This document shows, one piece after another, positions 8,809-15,929 of a DNA stretch of 64,000 nt. The position numbers were made by a program, and so were the translations under genes. A model generated the notes under the pieces. The model did not search any database, was not told where the DNA came from, and saw only the letters and a program-made list of their open reading frames with translations. Numbering within the stretch: the first letter of the stretch is position 1; each line of letters opens with the position of its first letter. The stretch is taken from UHGV virus genome UHGV-0286546; one strand, written 5' to 3'. This DNA comes from a virus.

Positions 8809-10890
8809 ATGGAAGATTTACCATTAGAAATTGAAGAAAAAATAGAACAATTACCGATTTTACCTTTTGAAATAAACGAAGAATTTCAAGAGCTTATGTT
8901 TTCTGACTTGTTTTCTGATATTTTCAATTTTTATAAAGAAAATTATTTACCAGATACACTTAAAACAAAATCAGAAATTTATCAAAGAATAAGTTTGTAC
9001 CTAAATCTTACCGGACAAGGCGATAAATTTACAGAAGAAACTGATAAACTCCTTTGGCGAAGACCTTGCCCTGATATTCATACCTTCTTGGCAGATAAAT
9101 TTTACATGGGATATAACAACAGTACTTTGTATCCATTCTGGCGTGAAAAACTAGAGTACATGTTTAGAGATTCTTCACCTGTTAGAAAAGCTATATTTTC
9201 GGGTTGTATAGGATCTGGTAAGTCGACAGTAGCTCGTAAAGCCTTCGTATACGTTCTATATCGCTTACTTTGTTTACGCTATCCACGCTCTGTACTTAAT
9301 ATTGACCAAGATGCTACAATTGCAAACGTCGTTATTGCTACAACTCTGAAACAAGTGTATGAAGTTAATATTCTTCCATTTATTAAACTTATGGAAACAA
9401 TGCCTTGCTTTCAAAGAGTTATGTCACAGAGGTCCTTTGAAAACTTTAATCTCGAAGATCCTCTTTGCCCTATACCTTTTTATTTTGAAAAAAGCAGTGG
9501 TACAATACATTTTCCTGACAATATTATTTTAACCAGTGGTAGTCAACCGACACACTTTACTGGTATGAATGTCATTAATTCATTCTGCTTCACAGAAACT
9601 ACAAAAGTATATACAAACGTTGGAACAATTACATTTGCTTCATTATTAACGCGTTTTAATCGTAAAGAAAAAATATATACATATACTATAGACAAAAACG
9701 GAAATAAAGAAAAAAGTTTAATTACAGACGTTAAAGTAACCGGGTATAAAACAGATTTAATTAGAATCTATTATGAGGATGATAGATATATCGAATGTAC
9801 TCCAGAACATCCTTTTGTAATATCTAATCCAAAAGAGAACGATAAACATGTAATATATGAAAACGGAATCCCATACAAACAAGCTCAATACTTAACAGAA
9901 GAAGATGAAATAGTATCCGAAAAACATGCCTTTGTTTATGAATTAATTGACAATCGACCAGATTCGGCATATTTCAACAAACCGTTTTATATTGGAATAA
10001 GTACGCATGATAATACGCTTGTAAAGTCACATTCTGTTAAATTTTTAAGACCTTACTCACATTTTACAAACAAATCACTAAAAAATGAAGCGAATTTAAT
10101 AAAAAAGAGTATTATTACAAAGATTTTGACAGCAGGTTTGAAACCAAAAATAAATATCATAAAAGAAAATTTAACTTTACAAGAAGCATATACTTTAGAA
10201 AAAGAATTGATCAATAAATATGGAAAAAGATATGACAATTCCGGAATATTAGCAAATATAAGTTCAGGTGGGGAAGGTATAATACTAACTACTCCGGATA
10301 TAATTAAAAGAAAAAGTGAAAATATAAAGAAAACTAAAGCAAAAATTCGTGCGCAAAAAATCGCCGAAAAACAACAAGAATGGGATACTTTGATAAGTAG
10401 TATATCTGGACGTTTGGCTATAATGATCGTATGCTTGCAATACATTGACGCTGTTCGGAAACGTTACCAACAAGGTGCTAATTCACCGCATAAGAAAGAA
10501 GTATCGAGGCAAAATATGATTAAATATAATAAATCAGAAGAACATAGAAAATTAACAGCGTATTATAATTCCATTCGTCCAAAAGTTTCTTCTAAAGAGA
10601 GTAGAGAAAAATTAAGTAAAAGCCAAAAAGAAGCATGGCGTAGAAAACCAATAGAAGAAAAAAGAGAAGTCAGTATCGGAAGAAGTTTAACAAATGCTTG
10701 GAATGTTTTACAAAAAATAGAAGGAAACAAAATTAACTCAAAGATTTTTAATGCTCATAGAATACCAAAAACTATGCATTCACGTACCGATCCTTGCTGG
10801 GAAACCTTGGTTAAAAAAATAGGAAGTGTTGAAAAGTTTTTAGATATGGTTAATAAAAAATACGGTAAGAGGTTTATATATGAAGATTAA
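8809..10890 (+). CDS. terL: Terminase large subunit N-extein (ATPase, Walker A) fused in frame to the intein N-terminal splicing domain and an I-TevI-like GIY-YIG/NUMOD homing endonuclease domain.
   Basis: Walker A is AIFSGCIGSGKST. The extein ends ...MNVINSF. The intein starts at Cys codon 9586-9588 (CFTETTKVYTNVGTITFASLL, block A) and block B is ECTPEHPFV. The GIY-YIG domain (FVYELIDNRPDSAYFNKPFYIGIS ... R..H ... N ... E) follows. Then NUMOD3-like basic repeats (HKKEVSRQNMIKYN, SKESREKLSKSQKEAWRRK). The ORF stops at 10888-10890. Confidence 0.75.
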   Translation: MEDLPLEIEEKIEQLPILPFEINEEFQELMFSDLFSDIFNFYKENYLPDTLKTKSEIYQRISLYLNLTGQGDKFTEETDKLLWRRPCPDIHTFLADKFYMGYNNSTLYPFWREKLEYMFRDSSPVRKAIFSGCIGSGKSTVARKAFVYVLYRLLCLRYPRSVLNIDQDATIANVVIATTLKQVYEVNILPFIKLMETMPCFQRVMSQRSFENFNLEDPLCPIPFYFEKSSGTIHFPDNIILTSGSQPTHFTGMNVINSFCFTETTKVYTNVGTITFASLLTRFNRKEKIYTYTIDKNGNKEKSLITDVKVTGYKTDLIRIYYEDDRYIECTPEHPFVISNPKENDKHVIYENGIPYKQAQYLTEEDEIVSEKHAFVYELIDNRPDSAYFNKPFYIGISTHDNTLVKSHSVKFLRPYSHFTNKSLKNEANLIKKSIITKILTAGLKPKINIIKENLTLQEAYTLEKELINKYGKRYDNSGILANISSGGEGIILTTPDIIKRKSENIKKTKAKIRAQKIAEKQQEWDTLISSISGRLAIMIVCLQYIDAVRKRYQQGANSPHKKEVSRQNMIKYNKSEEHRKLTAYYNSIRPKVSSKESREKLSKSQKEAWRRKPIEEKREVSIGRSLTNAWNVLQKIEGNKINSKIFNAHRIPKTMHSRTDPCWETLVKKIGSVEKFLDMVNKKYGKRFIYED

Positions 10891-11008
10891 AAAAATAGAA
10901 AAAATACACCTAGATGAACCTGTACCAGTGTATGATTTAACTGTAGAAAATGAAAATCACAACTTCGCATTGAGCCTAGACGATGGTACTATTGCGTTTG
11001 CCCACAAT
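9586..11008 (+). mobile_element. Intein (Hint domain) carrying a GIY-YIG homing endonuclease, inserted in the terminase Walker-B region. Its reading frame is split (+1) at 10880-10890.
   Basis: N-terminal blocks A and B are in ORF 8809..10890. C-terminal blocks F and G (VYDLTVENENHNFAL ... GTIAFAHN followed by +1 Cys at 11009) are in ORF 10880..12253. The predicted spliced junction is ...VINSF/CDEIND..., reconstituting an hhhhDE-like Walker B. Confidence 0.7.
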
Positions 11009-12253
11009 TGTGATGAGATCAATGATTACGGTAGTGTCGAAAGTACAATCGCATTATTAAATACCCTAGATAACAGATTTTCTAGTAGATTTTCTAATGT
11101 GGATTTGGTATTTCAAAGCGTTGTGAGTTCGGCTCGTACAACCAATTCTGCTTTGGGTGAGTATGTTCGTCACTTACCACAAAATGACCCTTCTATTCTA
11201 AAATTAAATCCAATGTTGTGGGAAGTTAAACCAGACCCAGACTTTAAAGGAGACGGTACAACTTTTCCAGTAATGGTAGGCAATGGTAGTATTCCGTCTA
11301 AAATTATTACTGACCCCGGTGAATTAAAAGCTATAGAAGAAAGTAAGTATGAACCACCAGCTGGATGTATTTTAATTAATGTACCAACAATCTTTCGTTC
11401 TAAATTCGAATTACAATTAGATCAATCGATACAAGATATTGCAGGTATAACTACAGATGATGACAACAGTGTATTTCGTGATACTACACAATTAGAAGAT
11501 ACTCGGCTTAATCCTGAATTTGTTTTAGAGGTTAACATAAGAGATAATACAAACATTCTTGACTTATTAAAGCAATACGATTTGTTTGAAATGAACTTGA
11601 ATAATACTTGGCAATTTAAAAGAGCACCGAAAGCAGATCGTTATGGGCATGTAGATTTAGCCGGCGGTGGTTCTGATGGACAATGTGACGCTGCCGTTTG
11701 TATTTTACATAAAGAATATCAGTATAATGAAGTAACTAAGTTGAAAGATATAATTTATGTAGTTGATTTATTATTAGCCATTAATGCAAAGAATAAGGTT
11801 GATATAAAAGCTATTCAAAACTTTTTAATTGATTTAGTAGTAGAAAGAAATATACCTATTCATACTATAACGGCAGATCAATGGCAAAGTTTGATGTTTT
11901 TACAGACTTTAGAGGCATCGGGTTGTTTTAGTAAGGTTGACAAATTATCTGTAGATACCAAGTTAGAGCCTTATACTAATTTAGCTACAATGTTAGAGCA
12001 AGGACAAGTTAAAGTAGGTAGTTGTCCTAAACTTAAAAAAGAATTAGAAGCATTAATATTAGATAAAGGTAAAGTAACACGTACGACAGAACTTAAAGAT
12101 TTAGCAGATGCATTAGTAGGTGCTGTATGGAATGCTCAATTAAATTATACAGATGTACCTATTTATGAATATACTAAACCAGAACTTAAAACAAGAGTAC
12201 TTACGTATACAGATTATATAGATTCCTCCTCCGAATTATTATGTGATTTATAG
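10880..12253 (+). CDS. terL: Intein C-terminal segment (43 aa, own ATG and SD-like AAGAGGT) fused to the terminase large subunit C-extein (nuclease domain).
   Basis: MKIKKIEKIHLDEPVPVYDLTVENENHNFALSLDDGTIAFAHN then CDEINDYGS. The RNaseH-like terminase nuclease motif is GHVDLAGGGSDGQCDAAVCIL (hhGxDxAxxGxDxxA). Confidence 0.75.
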   Translation: MKIKKIEKIHLDEPVPVYDLTVENENHNFALSLDDGTIAFAHNCDEINDYGSVESTIALLNTLDNRFSSRFSNVDLVFQSVVSSARTTNSALGEYVRHLPQNDPSILKLNPMLWEVKPDPDFKGDGTTFPVMVGNGSIPSKIITDPGELKAIEESKYEPPAGCILINVPTIFRSKFELQLDQSIQDIAGITTDDDNSVFRDTTQLEDTRLNPEFVLEVNIRDNTNILDLLKQYDLFEMNLNNTWQFKRAPKADRYGHVDLAGGGSDGQCDAAVCILHKEYQYNEVTKLKDIIYVVDLLLAINAKNKVDIKAIQNFLIDLVVERNIPIHTITADQWQSLMFLQTLEASGCFSKVDKLSVDTKLEPYTNLATMLEQGQVKVGSCPKLKKELEALILDKGKVTRTTELKDLADALVGAVWNAQLNYTDVPIYEYTKPELKTRVLTYTDYIDSSSELLCDL

Positions 12254-12591
12254 AATTTTGTTTCATATGTTAATACAGCCAATCTATAATCATAACGATG
12301 GATTCTACACAGAGTCTGTAATTCTTCAGCTTGTTCTTTAGAATCATTTTCCAAGTACCATTCGTAGAGACTTCTGTATAATTCTTGAGGAGTAGGTTTA
12401 TTATATTTTCTTTCATATAAGGTATCTTCGATCTTATTTAGAATGCTATCACTTGTTTTAGCAACATCACCTAAAGATTCTGAACAGTAATCCAACGAGT
12501 CTAACACTTTGTCCATTTTTTCAAGTAGCTCACTTGGAACTTCAAATATAATCGGGTGACTGTGCATTGCTATATCTTCCTCTTCTGACAT
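12214..12591 (-). CDS. Hypothetical small acidic protein. It is convergent with the terminase gene and overlaps its 3' end by 40 nt.
   Basis: 125-aa ORF on the opposite strand between plus-strand gene blocks. Confidence 0.4.
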   Translation of the reverse strand: MSEEEDIAMHSHPIIFEVPSELLEKMDKVLDSLDYCSESLGDVAKTSDSILNKIEDTLYERKYNKPTPQELYRSLYEWYLENDSKEQAEELQTLCRIHRYDYRLAVLTYETKFYKSHNNSEEESI

Positions 12592-14429: not shown

Positions 14430-15929
14430 ATGAAATATATTTGTCAGTATTGTGGTAAAGAATATGAAGCTGATGTCAATAATGGACCTTGGCAAAAAGA
14501 TAATACACAAAAAATGGTAAAACAGGGTGTAAATGTTTCCAGATTCTGTTGCTATGAATGTGGTAAAGCTGCACGTAAAGAAAAAATAGCTAAAAACTGG
14601 CAAAATAAAAGCTTAGAAGAAAGAGAAAGCATAAACAAAAAACGTAAATCATCAATTCTTCCTAAAGTTTGTAAAAATTGCGGTAAAACCTTTATACCAA
14701 ATCAAGCCGGAGGATCAAAAAATGGTGTCTATCTTTGTTCTGATCAATGCCGAAAAGAATATTTCCAACAAATTCCAGAATCCGGTATGCGTATTTGTGA
14801 AGAATGTGGTAAAGAATACTATTATGAAAAAAATCAAGGTAATTGGAATAAAGATAACGAATTAATAGATTCTTCTGAAAACAATAAAGAATTTTCAATT
14901 AAAAGTCATAGATTCTGTTGTTATGAATGCGGTGTAAAACATAAAGAAAAATTAAGAAAAATAACTAATCTACAAAAATATGGTTATTTGAGTCCATGGC
15001 AGGATATTGTTATTCGTGAAAAAATGTTTGATAAAATGAAAAAGGATGGTACATTGTTTAGTTCAAAGCCAGAAAAAGAAATTCGTGCATTTATAGAAAG
15101 TCTCGGTTTTAGTACTGACAAATTTATCATTGGTGACGGACGCACTTCTCAGCGCTTTGAAATTGATATATACATTCCAGAAAAAAATATCGGTGTTGAA
15201 TTTAATGGTGCATACTTTCATAGTATTAATGGTAAAAAAATAGGCTTTATATCGCATAATTATCACTATAACAAATCAAAAATTGCTAAAGAAAAAGGTA
15301 TAGAATTAATACACATTTGGGAAGATCAATGGGCAAACCAAAAAGATATTGTAAAAGATATATTAAAAGCTAGATTAGGTGTAATTGATAAAGATAATCG
15401 TATATACGCTAGACAATGTACGATTAAAGAAATATCAACAGAAGAATATAAAACCTTTTGCGAAAAATACCATATGCAAGGATATAGAAGTGCCAAAATA
15501 AAATACGGTTTATTCTATCAAGGTAAACTCGTACAAATATCTTCCTTTAGCCGAACTAGAAATACCGGTAAAGCCATACAGAAAAACCAAGAATATGAAT
15601 ATGAATGGTGTCGTGGCTGTATAGCTTCTAATAACTTTGTAATCGGAGGTACTTCAAAATTATTAAAACATTTTATCAAAGAATACGATCCTGATTCAAT
15701 TCTATGCTATGCAGATTGGAATTTATTTAATGGAAACGGCTATAAAGAAGCAGGTTTTGAATTTGACGGATATACAGGACCAGATAAATTCTATATTCAA
15801 CCAAAACCAATACTTAGAATAAATCGTAATCCTCATAAGTATAAAGAATATAAACGACTCGTAGAAGATCATAAATTATGGTTATGTTATGGAGCCGGAT
15901 CATTACGGTTTAAATGGATTAAAAAATGA
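14430..15929 (+). CDS. Zinc-ribbon-repeat protein with a DUF559/Vsr-like PD-(D/E)xK endonuclease domain (homing-endonuclease-like).
   Basis: Six CxxC pairs occur at the N-terminus (CQYCGK, CCYECGK, CKNCGK, CSDQCRK, CEECGK, CCYECG). EKEIRAFIESLGF...RFEIDIYIPEKNIGVEFNGAYFHS...GIELIHIWEDQW matches the E..DFyiPe..laIE.DG..H core. A strong SD (AAAAAGGAGAGG) is present. Confidence 0.55.
   Translation: MKYICQYCGKEYEADVNNGPWQKDNTQKMVKQGVNVSRFCCYECGKAARKEKIAKNWQNKSLEERESINKKRKSSILPKVCKNCGKTFIPNQAGGSKNGVYLCSDQCRKEYFQQIPESGMRICEECGKEYYYEKNQGNWNKDNELIDSSENNKEFSIKSHRFCCYECGVKHKEKLRKITNLQKYGYLSPWQDIVIREKMFDKMKKDGTLFSSKPEKEIRAFIESLGFSTDKFIIGDGRTSQRFEIDIYIPEKNIGVEFNGAYFHSINGKKIGFISHNYHYNKSKIAKEKGIELIHIWEDQWANQKDIVKDILKARLGVIDKDNRIYARQCTIKEISTEEYKTFCEKYHMQGYRSAKIKYGLFYQGKLVQISSFSRTRNTGKAIQKNQEYEYEWCRGCIASNNFVIGGTSKLLKHFIKEYDPDSILCYADWNLFNGNGYKEAGFEFDGYTGPDKFYIQPKPILRINRNPHKYKEYKRLVEDHKLWLCYGAGSLRFKWIKK

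Follow-up and report, generated by a model that had tools for sequence, protein, structure and literature searches.

In the virus genome UHGV-0286546, of which a stretch of 64,000 nucleotides (nt) was analyzed (the window), the gene for the terminase large subunit (TerL) is interrupted by an intein and a GIY-YIG homing-endonuclease-like module, and is thereby laid out as two overlapping open reading frames (ORFs). We consider it very probable that this terL is a fractured gene, in which a class-1 intein is inserted before the Walker-B motif, the gene for a GIY-YIG homing endonuclease (HE) occupies the canonical split site of that intein, and the protein products are trans-spliced. The two-ORF frame break is conserved in at least six diverged lineages (the window, L003, L013, L014, L034 and L035/36).

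ORF1 encodes, in this order, the Walker A motif GCIGSGKST, the sequence VINSF, Cys260 at the start of CFTETTKV, the sequence ECTPEHPF, a VYELID...PFYIGIS motif and a basic tail. The N-terminus of ORF2 reads MKIKKIEKIHLDEPVPVYDLTVENENHNFALSLDDGTIAFAHN and is followed by Cys+1 and DEIND. A preliminary description, made by reading the letters and the predicted ORFs, had placed the two ORFs, Walker A, the Cys codon at 9586, the ATG at 10880, the AAGAGGT and a run of six A (A6); all of these coordinates were correct when the sequence was read again, and the 43-residue intein C-terminal segment that it described, ending in AFAHN ahead of Cys+1, is present. The parts of the locus are as follows.

8809-10890, + strand: ORF1, 693 amino acids (aa); TerL N-extein, N-terminal intein half (IntN) and in-frame GIY-YIG module
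10880-12253, + strand: ORF2, 457 aa, in the +1 frame relative to ORF1; C-terminal intein half (IntC) and TerL C-extein
8809..9585, + strand: TerL N-extein, 259 aa; the uninterrupted homologue P0124 is identical across it
9202-9228, + strand: Walker A motif GCIGSGKST, within the TerL N-extein
9586..9915, + strand: IntN, ORF1 residues 260-369, 110 aa; Cys1 is C260, at 9586-9588
9916..10890, + strand: GIY-YIG homing-endonuclease-like module, fused in frame to IntN; ORF1 residues 370-693 (324 aa) plus TAA
about 9928-10290, + strand: catalytic domain of the GIY-YIG module, with Y377, Y394, G396, R414, E464 and N483
10291-10887, + strand: basic C-terminal region of the HE, presumed to bind DNA
10867..10873, + strand: Shine-Dalgarno (SD)-like AAGAGGT inside the end of the HE coding sequence, 6 nt before the IntC ATG (7 nt from the AAGAGG core)
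10880..10890, + strand: overlap of ORF1 and ORF2, 11 nt (..Y E D TAA in one frame, ATG AAG ATT AA in the other); candidate translational-coupling site
10880..11008, + strand: IntC, 43 aa; basic N-terminal strand MKIKKIEK, block F VYDLTVENENHNF and block G AFAH42-N43
11009-11011, + strand: Cys+1, directly after IntC N43
11009..12253, + strand: TerL C-extein, 414 aa plus stop; Cys+1, Walker-B DE (CDEIND) and RNase-H-like nuclease domain
9586..11008, + strand: whole mobile insertion (IntN, HE and IntC), 1423 nt

The N-extein ends in ...VINSF, directly ahead of the Walker-B DE, and the predicted splice junction is ...GMNVINSF-CDEINDYGSVESTIALLNTLDNR, giving a predicted junction peptide ...FTGMNVINSFCDEINDYGSVESTIALLNTLDNR. 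The TAA stop of ORF1 is at 10888-10890 and the A6 run at 10855-10860, and frame 2 is open from 10844. By inspection of the sequence, no ATG, GTG or TTG occurs in frame from Cys1 to the YIG motif.

Judged by sequence, the interruption is a class-1 intein (Hint domain). The preliminary description had called it from its motifs, and profile searches bear this out, with both half-models and the joined model scoring above their curated cutoffs and the +1 Cys kept. The NCBIfam model intein_Nterm (TIGR01445) matched ORF1 residues 260-337 at 32.0 bits (cutoff 24.5), covering profile positions 1-82 of 83, and intein_Cterm (TIGR01443) matched ORF2 residues 16-44 at 20.1 bits (cutoff 15.6). When IntN and IntC were joined in silico, the Pfam model Intein_splicing matched at 38.4 bits (cutoff 35.8), and it matched all six alleles of a set made up of the window and five homologous alleles assembled for comparison. 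Block B is present as T331-x-x-H334 within ECTPEHPF. In the six-allele alignment there is no variation at Cys1, at the T-x-x-H, at the Asp and His of block F or at the final His-Asn. The +1 residue is Cys in 27 and Thr in 7 of 34 split alleles.

IntN aligns with the contiguous mini-intein of a homologous locus, L006, and ends in an acidic tail, LTEEDEIV. In this alignment the insert falls between ...TEEDEI and KIKKIEK..., which is the canonical site of endonuclease insertion and of splitting, and the IntC ATG seems to lie where the C-half of natural DnaE split inteins starts. Among solved structures, the joined IntN/IntC profile is closest in sequence to the NrdJ-1 split intein (PDB 8ubs; E = 6e-6).

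The boundaries of the insertion were obtained from alleles that lack it. Among the 120 best clusters of C-extein homologues, 75 are full-length TerL proteins uninterrupted at the site and 34 are ORFs that start with IntC. The product predicted after splicing (259 + 414 = 673 aa) and the uninterrupted P0124 (673 aa) differ at a single position, T654A; P0125 differs at three. The flanks of L029, L030 and L031, the genomes that carry these uninterrupted proteins, are 98-98.8% identical to the window in nucleotide sequence (blastn), with a clean break at 9585|11009, and the intein-less L029 allele reads ...AATTCATTT|TGTGATGAG... around the site. The mobile insert is therefore exactly 9586-11008, and its ends coincide with Cys1 and with Asn|Cys+1. 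The junction ...VINSF|CDEIND... of the preliminary description is that of the uninterrupted alleles L001 and P0124 (one mismatch in 673 aa), and this comparison with insertion-free relatives, which it had also suggested, confirms a precise in-frame insertion. Its placement of the site in the Walker-B region was likewise right: the intein sits between ...INSF and C-D-E, before the acidic pair.

To follow the frame break across lineages, homologous split loci were drawn from IMG/VR, JGI metagenomes and Logan/ENA assemblies. A scan of viral contigs for IntN and HE as a single protein returned nothing, an alignment-based scan returned L003 only, and a metagenome scan added L013 and L014; an exact-protein look-up of ORF1 found no record. 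The two-ORF fused layout was found in L003 (ORF1 truncated by the contig end), L013 (ORF1 692 aa), L014 (689 aa, on a 241-kb contig), L034 (694 aa) and L035/L036 (628 aa), five further split lineages whose HEs are 47-88% identical to that of the window in amino acid sequence. The junction DNA of the split lineages aligns without gaps. The A6 run is present only in the window, and other lineages read GAAAAGCAATTT, AAGAACGATATGG and so on at this position. In all split alleles, a purine-rich SD (GGAAGGA, AAAGGAG, GGGAGGAAG or TAGGAGG) lies 6-9 nt ahead of the ATG, and the HE frame stops 8-20 nt past the IntC ATG. The overlap motif TATGAAGATTAA is conserved in L003, L014 and L009, with variants in L013 and L035. 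Before the ATG, changes between ATA, ATC and ATT are synonymous (Ile) in the HE frame and non-synonymous in frame 2, and past the ATG the conserved frame is frame 2. The exact ORF2 protein occurs on 5 contigs, and the window is 100% identical to the ENA scaffold ZELL14-1_SAMEA2467045 scaffold_5.

The host gene is the terL of a jumbo gut phage of ~240 kb. A tblastn search with ORF2 matched annotated terminase large subunits in several phages, and the ATPase motifs GSGKST and NSFCDE are present. An AlphaFold (AF2) model of the uninterrupted homologue P0124 (predicted local distance difference test, pLDDT, 78) matched HK97 TerL (E = 6.9e-12) and T4 gp17 (E = 1.7e-11) in Foldseek, as well as the nuclease domains of G20c and P74-26 TerL. 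Profile support is weak (PHROG 2 at E = 0.008); the TerL profile had no match among PDB sequences, Pfam likewise gave none for TerL, and megablast of the window against GenBank phages gave no match. The source scaffold is 480,241 bp long, compared to 238-257 kb for relatives with the same gene neighborhood, and it may be a head-to-tail dimer of a ~240-kb genome because the related genomes are of that size.

The identity of the endonuclease part was approached through its own family. No GIY-YIG or NUMOD match at threshold was found in it with Pfam, NCBIfam or PHROGs: the window protein matched LEM-3_GIY-YIG weakly (E = 0.01) and PF01541 not at all, and PF01541 was weakly matched by 10 of 61 relatives (best E = 0.0075). 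A profile built from the first 125 residues of the HE collected 1945 relatives, free-standing proteins of ~200 aa. NUMOD3 was present in 41 of the 61 that were sampled, at up to 77 bits, and others carried NUMOD1 or I-HmuI-type modules. Residues Y377, Y394, G396, R414, E464 and N483 are invariant across 61-62 aligned family members, and a predicted-structure search supported the GIY-YIG alpha/beta fold. Together, the family profile, the invariant residues and the structure search support the assignment of the module to the GIY-YIG nuclease superfamily. The GIY-YIG domain named in the preliminary description thus holds by these three lines, with Pfam and NCBIfam giving no match at threshold. 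The NUMOD3-like basic repeats that it had also named were not confirmed: Pfam gave no match, and hhalign of the C-terminal region against NUMOD3-bearing relatives gave a weak match with a probability of 6%.

All segments of the locus are under constraint. The ratio of non-synonymous to synonymous substitution rates (dN/dS) was computed against L034, with a dS of ~0.75 for the intein and endonuclease segments. It was 0.038 for the N-extein, 0.094 for IntN, 0.083 for the whole endonuclease (0.048 for its catalytic domain and 0.115 for its C-terminal part), 0.019 for IntC and 0.14 for the C-extein. With values of 0.02-0.14 across the segments, the element is therefore maintained by purifying selection. 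It also appears to move. Both presence and absence of the insert are found at ~98.5% genome identity, and L033 matches the window at 94-100% identity across the HE tail, IntC and ~245 nt of the C-extein, with identity falling to 54-81% beyond. This mosaic looks like the pattern expected of homing with co-conversion, and together with the presence/absence polymorphism it points to current mobility.

The same phage clade holds several states of the Walker-B site. It is free of an intein in L001, L005, L002/7 and L004. L006 has a contiguous mini-intein in an 827-aa TerL, L009/L010 have three ORFs with a free-standing HE whose ATG overlaps the IntN stop without a spacer, and the fused two-ORF state is that of the window and its five counterparts. 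The 5' junctions of fused and unfused alleles differ in length by one nucleotide. The linker of the L006 mini-intein (GAAGAAGGAAATTCATCTATAAAAATTAA; E-E-G-N-S-S-I; L006 5926-6060, IMGVR_UViG_3300032030_000070) is homologous to the region of HE tail, SD and ATG in the split alleles; ATA replaces the ATG, and the unused frame still reads RKFIYKN*. This homology suggests that the L006 mini-intein arose by deletion of the HE, which re-fused the intein.

A mechanism can be proposed from this layout. A promoter/terminator scan found no terminator between ORF1 and ORF2, so that they are probably co-transcribed, and promoter-like sites were not enriched. The HE, which lacks a start codon and a 5' untranslated region of its own, would be read in frame from IntN, and its 3' end would supply the SD and ATG of the downstream half within the 11-nt overlap. 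One transcript would then give TerL-N(259)-IntN(110)-HE(324) and IntC(43)-TerL-C(414). ORF2 would probably be started by translational coupling or re-initiation, and coupling would help to keep a 1:1 stoichiometry. IntN is acidic at its end (LTEEDEI) and IntC is basic at its start (MKIKKIEK), an opposition of charge like that reported for natural split inteins; the two would associate and rebuild the Hint domain, which would trans-splice the exteins into the 673-aa TerL. The IntN-HE/IntC complex released in this way would be, in effect, a nicked bifunctional intein, and its nuclease would presumably cut the HE-free or intein-free terL of co-infecting relatives, allowing the element to spread by homing. 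That IntN-GIY-YIG is indeed a functional two-piece bifunctional intein, with the HE made only within the TerL-N precursor, freed only by trans-splicing and acting as the IntN-HE/IntC complex, is a more tentative proposal, to which we give somewhat less than an even chance.

Several points weigh against these interpretations. Trans-splicing, translational coupling, and the activity and target of the nuclease are all deduced from DNA. On the window protein, the GIY-YIG and NUMOD3 hidden Markov models stay below threshold, and the nuclease is therefore called from the predicted structure and the family invariants. Association of the halves might be slowed by the 324 aa that extend IntN at its C-terminus, although contiguous inteins carry endonuclease domains in the same loop. 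L033, at 3.2 kb, is a short contig that may be an assembly chimera. Finally, the survey covered 64 kb of the genome, and a second intact terL may be present elsewhere.

The frame break itself could have simpler origins. The preliminary description had offered, next to a natural fracture, a contiguous GIY-YIG intein whose frame was broken by a 1-nt sequencing or assembly indel in the A6 run at 10855-10860; homopolymer runs are error-prone, and since frame 2 is open from 10844, one A fewer would join the frames. However, the five other diverged lineages, from different samples and assemblers, share the break with an ungapped junction and without the A6 run, the ATG and its SD are conserved, the codon at the ATG position is ATA in the contiguous allele L006, and the ORF2 protein recurs exactly on its 5 contigs. 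The homopolymer error is therefore rejected, being extremely improbable, and the natural fracture gains support from the recurrence of the same break with an SD-preceded ATG. Programmed +1 frameshifting by the ribosome towards the end of ORF1, giving a single precursor that splices in cis, would also account for overlapping frames with an SD-like element upstream, an arrangement superficially like that of prfB. We regard it as very unlikely: visual inspection of the ~30-47 nt stretch in which frame 2 is open revealed no conserved shift-prone codon, and this stretch varies between lineages except for the SD, ATG and stop, which leaves no conserved slippery site for such a shift. The SD lies 7 nt ahead of the ATG, the standard geometry for initiation, and L037, which has an endonuclease of a different family, uses the same ATG...TAG geometry.

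Other explanations accept the two ORFs and differ on what they do. The gene might be a decaying terL copy, disrupted by a selfish endonuclease, with packaging carried out by another terminase; jumbo phages sometimes carry fragmented genes, and only 64 kb of this genome was examined. No second terL copy was found within the 64-kb window, however, and the strong purifying selection on exteins and intein halves, the retention of all splicing residues, exteins essentially identical to the intact TerL of sister strains and the persistence of the layout over deep divergence make decay highly improbable. The interruption could act at the RNA level, as a group I intron with a GIY-YIG ORF like T4 td/I-TevI, given that GIY-YIG endonucleases are typical of phage group I introns and that terL is split by group I introns in other gut jumbo phages. 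Yet no Rfam family reached the gathering threshold in the window and none of relevance appeared at E <= 1 in 9500-11200, the sequences flanking the HE encode a complete Hint domain in frame with the exteins, and the boundaries fall at Cys1 and Asn|Cys+1, so that we give an intron almost no weight. A functional split intein whose GIY-YIG module is no longer a homing nuclease, being either an inert passenger or co-opted for DNA binding, solubility or phage exclusion, is unlikely, if less far-fetched. The module no longer has expression signals of its own, no NUMOD3 motif was confirmed in it with Pfam or hhalign, and in most comparisons the element co-diverges with the host gene (42-63% identity for intein and HE, 57-85% for the exteins). 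Against this, the catalytic Y, Y, R, E and N are invariant, the dN/dS of the catalytic domain is 0.048, and presence/absence at ~98.5% identity and the co-conversion-like mosaic argue for current mobility.

The trans-spliced fractured terL can be compared with several described systems. Dassa, London, Stoddard, Schueler-Furman and Pietrokovski (Dassa et al. 2009, Nucleic Acids Research, PMC2677866) reported 26 fractured loci, including some with GIY-YIG endonucleases and one gp17-like terminase, and an element of this kind is therefore already known. In those loci, too, N-part-IntN and IntC-C-part are separate ORFs on one strand with an HE between them at the canonical break, the loci are of phage origin, and GIY-YIG is one of the two endonuclease families. 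The 3' end of the HE overlaps the start of IntC by 6-69 bp in 15 of their loci, compared to 11 nt in the window, and such an overlap was seen in all split alleles examined here. The difference is at the 5' end. The HEs of Dassa et al. are free-standing behind a non-coding spacer of 27-51 nt with a hairpin or late promoter, whereas that of the window is in frame with IntN and has neither a start codon nor a spacer; among our alleles, only that of L009/L010 has its own HE ATG, which overlaps the IntN stop. Their terminase locus also differs, having an atypical split and a 122-aa IntC, in contrast to the canonical split, the 43-aa IntC and the different TerL lineage of the window. The same authors stated that GIY-YIG was not known as part of an intein, and their model includes a step (IIIa) in which the HE flanks are lost to give an in-frame fusion, for which they had no example. 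The locus described here represents a half-completed step IIIa, with the 5' flank gone and the 3' flank kept, in at least six lineages. The preliminary description had called the architecture unusual; this applies to the in-frame IntN-HE fusion, and not to a GIY-YIG fractured arrangement as such, which is already published, a terminase included. In the publications that we consulted, we found no description of a translational fusion between IntN and an endonuclease.

The NrdJ-1 split intein, which belongs to the same fractured-gene set, is also of class 1 and split at the canonical site, but it is only remotely similar and has another host gene, insertion site and extein junction. With I-TevI and the Seg-type HEs of T4-like phages, the module shares the invariant Y..Y-x-G..R..E..N and a basic C-terminal region, and its free-standing relatives carry NUMOD3 and NUMOD1. 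Unlike them, it is neither free-standing nor intron-encoded, its N-terminus being covalently linked to one half of an intein and, until splicing takes place, also to part of a terminase, and the Pfam GIY-YIG and NUMOD3 models remain sub-threshold on it. Gosselin, Arsenault and Gogarten (preprint, 10.1101/2025.01.02.630785) described free-standing endonucleases that invaded intein coding sequences in actinobacteriophage terminases, and proposed that 1-2 bp indels later bring the endonuclease into frame. Their cases are contiguous inteins with out-of-frame or antisense EndoVII-like, Vsr-like or LAGLIDADG ORFs, whereas the intein of the window is split and its HE is in frame on one side only.

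In the cultured Thornevirus phages SP-15 (Bacillus phage, KT624200) and LIS04 (Listeria phage, OQ999172), an intein likewise divides TerL in the Walker-B region, with an ORF between the two parts; the N-part ends ..DIF|CLTGESKIY.. and the C-part reads MKVTYVKK...VVVHN|CGLLDEVEF. Their TerL is only a distant relative of that of the window (26-29% identity), and the ORF in the middle neither belongs to the GIY-YIG family nor is fused to IntN. SP-15 (L028 1723-4467) has a 230-aa ORF of no recognizable family between the halves. In LIS04 (L027 784-4458) there is an "endonuclease" ORF that matches Phage_endo_I weakly, and a 56-aa Hint fragment stands by itself, so that the N-half seems to be further broken. 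In the GenBank records of both phages, the pieces are annotated separately as hypothetical, Hint-domain or endonuclease proteins.

Related inteins were seen at other places. L004 4108-7245 (IMGVR_UViG_3300028888_000051, 227 kb) encodes a 1045-aa TerL homologue with a different, contiguous intein in the Walker-A P-loop (GGSIG|C...HN|CGKST), which has an HNH-like motif (HHKNFNKLDDRPQNL...H); its Walker-B site is intein-free (IVNSFMDEINEKG). The same TerL family has therefore been invaded at two ATPase motifs. In another jumbo phage, L008 5287-6726 (IMGVR_UViG_3300037067_027643, 286 kb) is an AAA+ clamp-loader-like gene with a mini-intein right behind Walker-B (..VVFLDE|CLEETT...LTSN|CDGITF), and the C-half of this intein resembles the IntC of the window (45% identity over 51 aa). 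L037 931-4874 (ENA ERZ28436044 NODE_166) holds a second intein subtype at the same TerL site as the window, CLTGETKV...IIITKN|CDELNEKG, in which the penultimate residue is Lys and not His; a Lys-Asn ending occurs in 7 of the 34 IntC-starting clusters. Its free-standing endonuclease belongs to a different family (487 aa, Pfam DUF7487 at 98 bits, plus helix-turn-helix motifs), starts 1 nt past the IntN stop and ends 8 nt past the IntC ATG, the same 3' geometry as in the GIY-YIG alleles. In the uninterrupted alleles (P0123-P0242 set), the +1 position is Cys in 44, Leu in 14, Met in 10, Thr in 5 and Val in 2. With Leu, Met or Val at this position, an invaded allele could not be spliced, and such alleles may be refractory or immune variants of the homing site.

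The window, which as a whole has 32% GC and dense standard-code ORFs, offers two further observations near terL. A 125-aa ORF on the - strand (12214-12591) overlaps the last 40 nt of terL, and a gene is called at the same place in L029-L032. The segment 14373-16570 is variable between near-identical strains: L030 and L031 lack ~2.1 kb of it, including a 499-aa ORF (14430-15929) without a Pfam match, and carry a 686-aa DUF7487 gene slightly further downstream, and the counterpart in L029 is a copy at 74% identity only. It is another variable locus, possibly associated with endonucleases.

For annotation, the locus carries a warning, as two terminase fragments and a long hypothetical protein in a jumbo phage can be one functional gene. 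The clade is also a source of canonical-split class-1 inteins (Cys+1, Thr+1 and the Lys-Asn subtype) that could be screened as protein-ligation tools. If the two-piece bifunctional intein is real, it would be the first GIY-YIG nuclease found in nature as a covalent part of an intein and a living intermediate on the route from free-standing endonuclease to intein domain, and the activity of the nuclease would be tied to late expression and to repair of the host gene. It raises the question whether a GIY-YIG nuclease can work with its N-terminus tethered to an intein half. With an HE fused on one side and separate on the other, the locus presents, as a natural and conserved stage, what the fractured-gene model merely postulated. 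A single phage clade holds the series of empty site, mini-intein, three-ORF arrangement, fused two-ORF arrangement and a second subtype with a different HE, and the origin and turnover of intein endonuclease domains are therefore directly testable in it.

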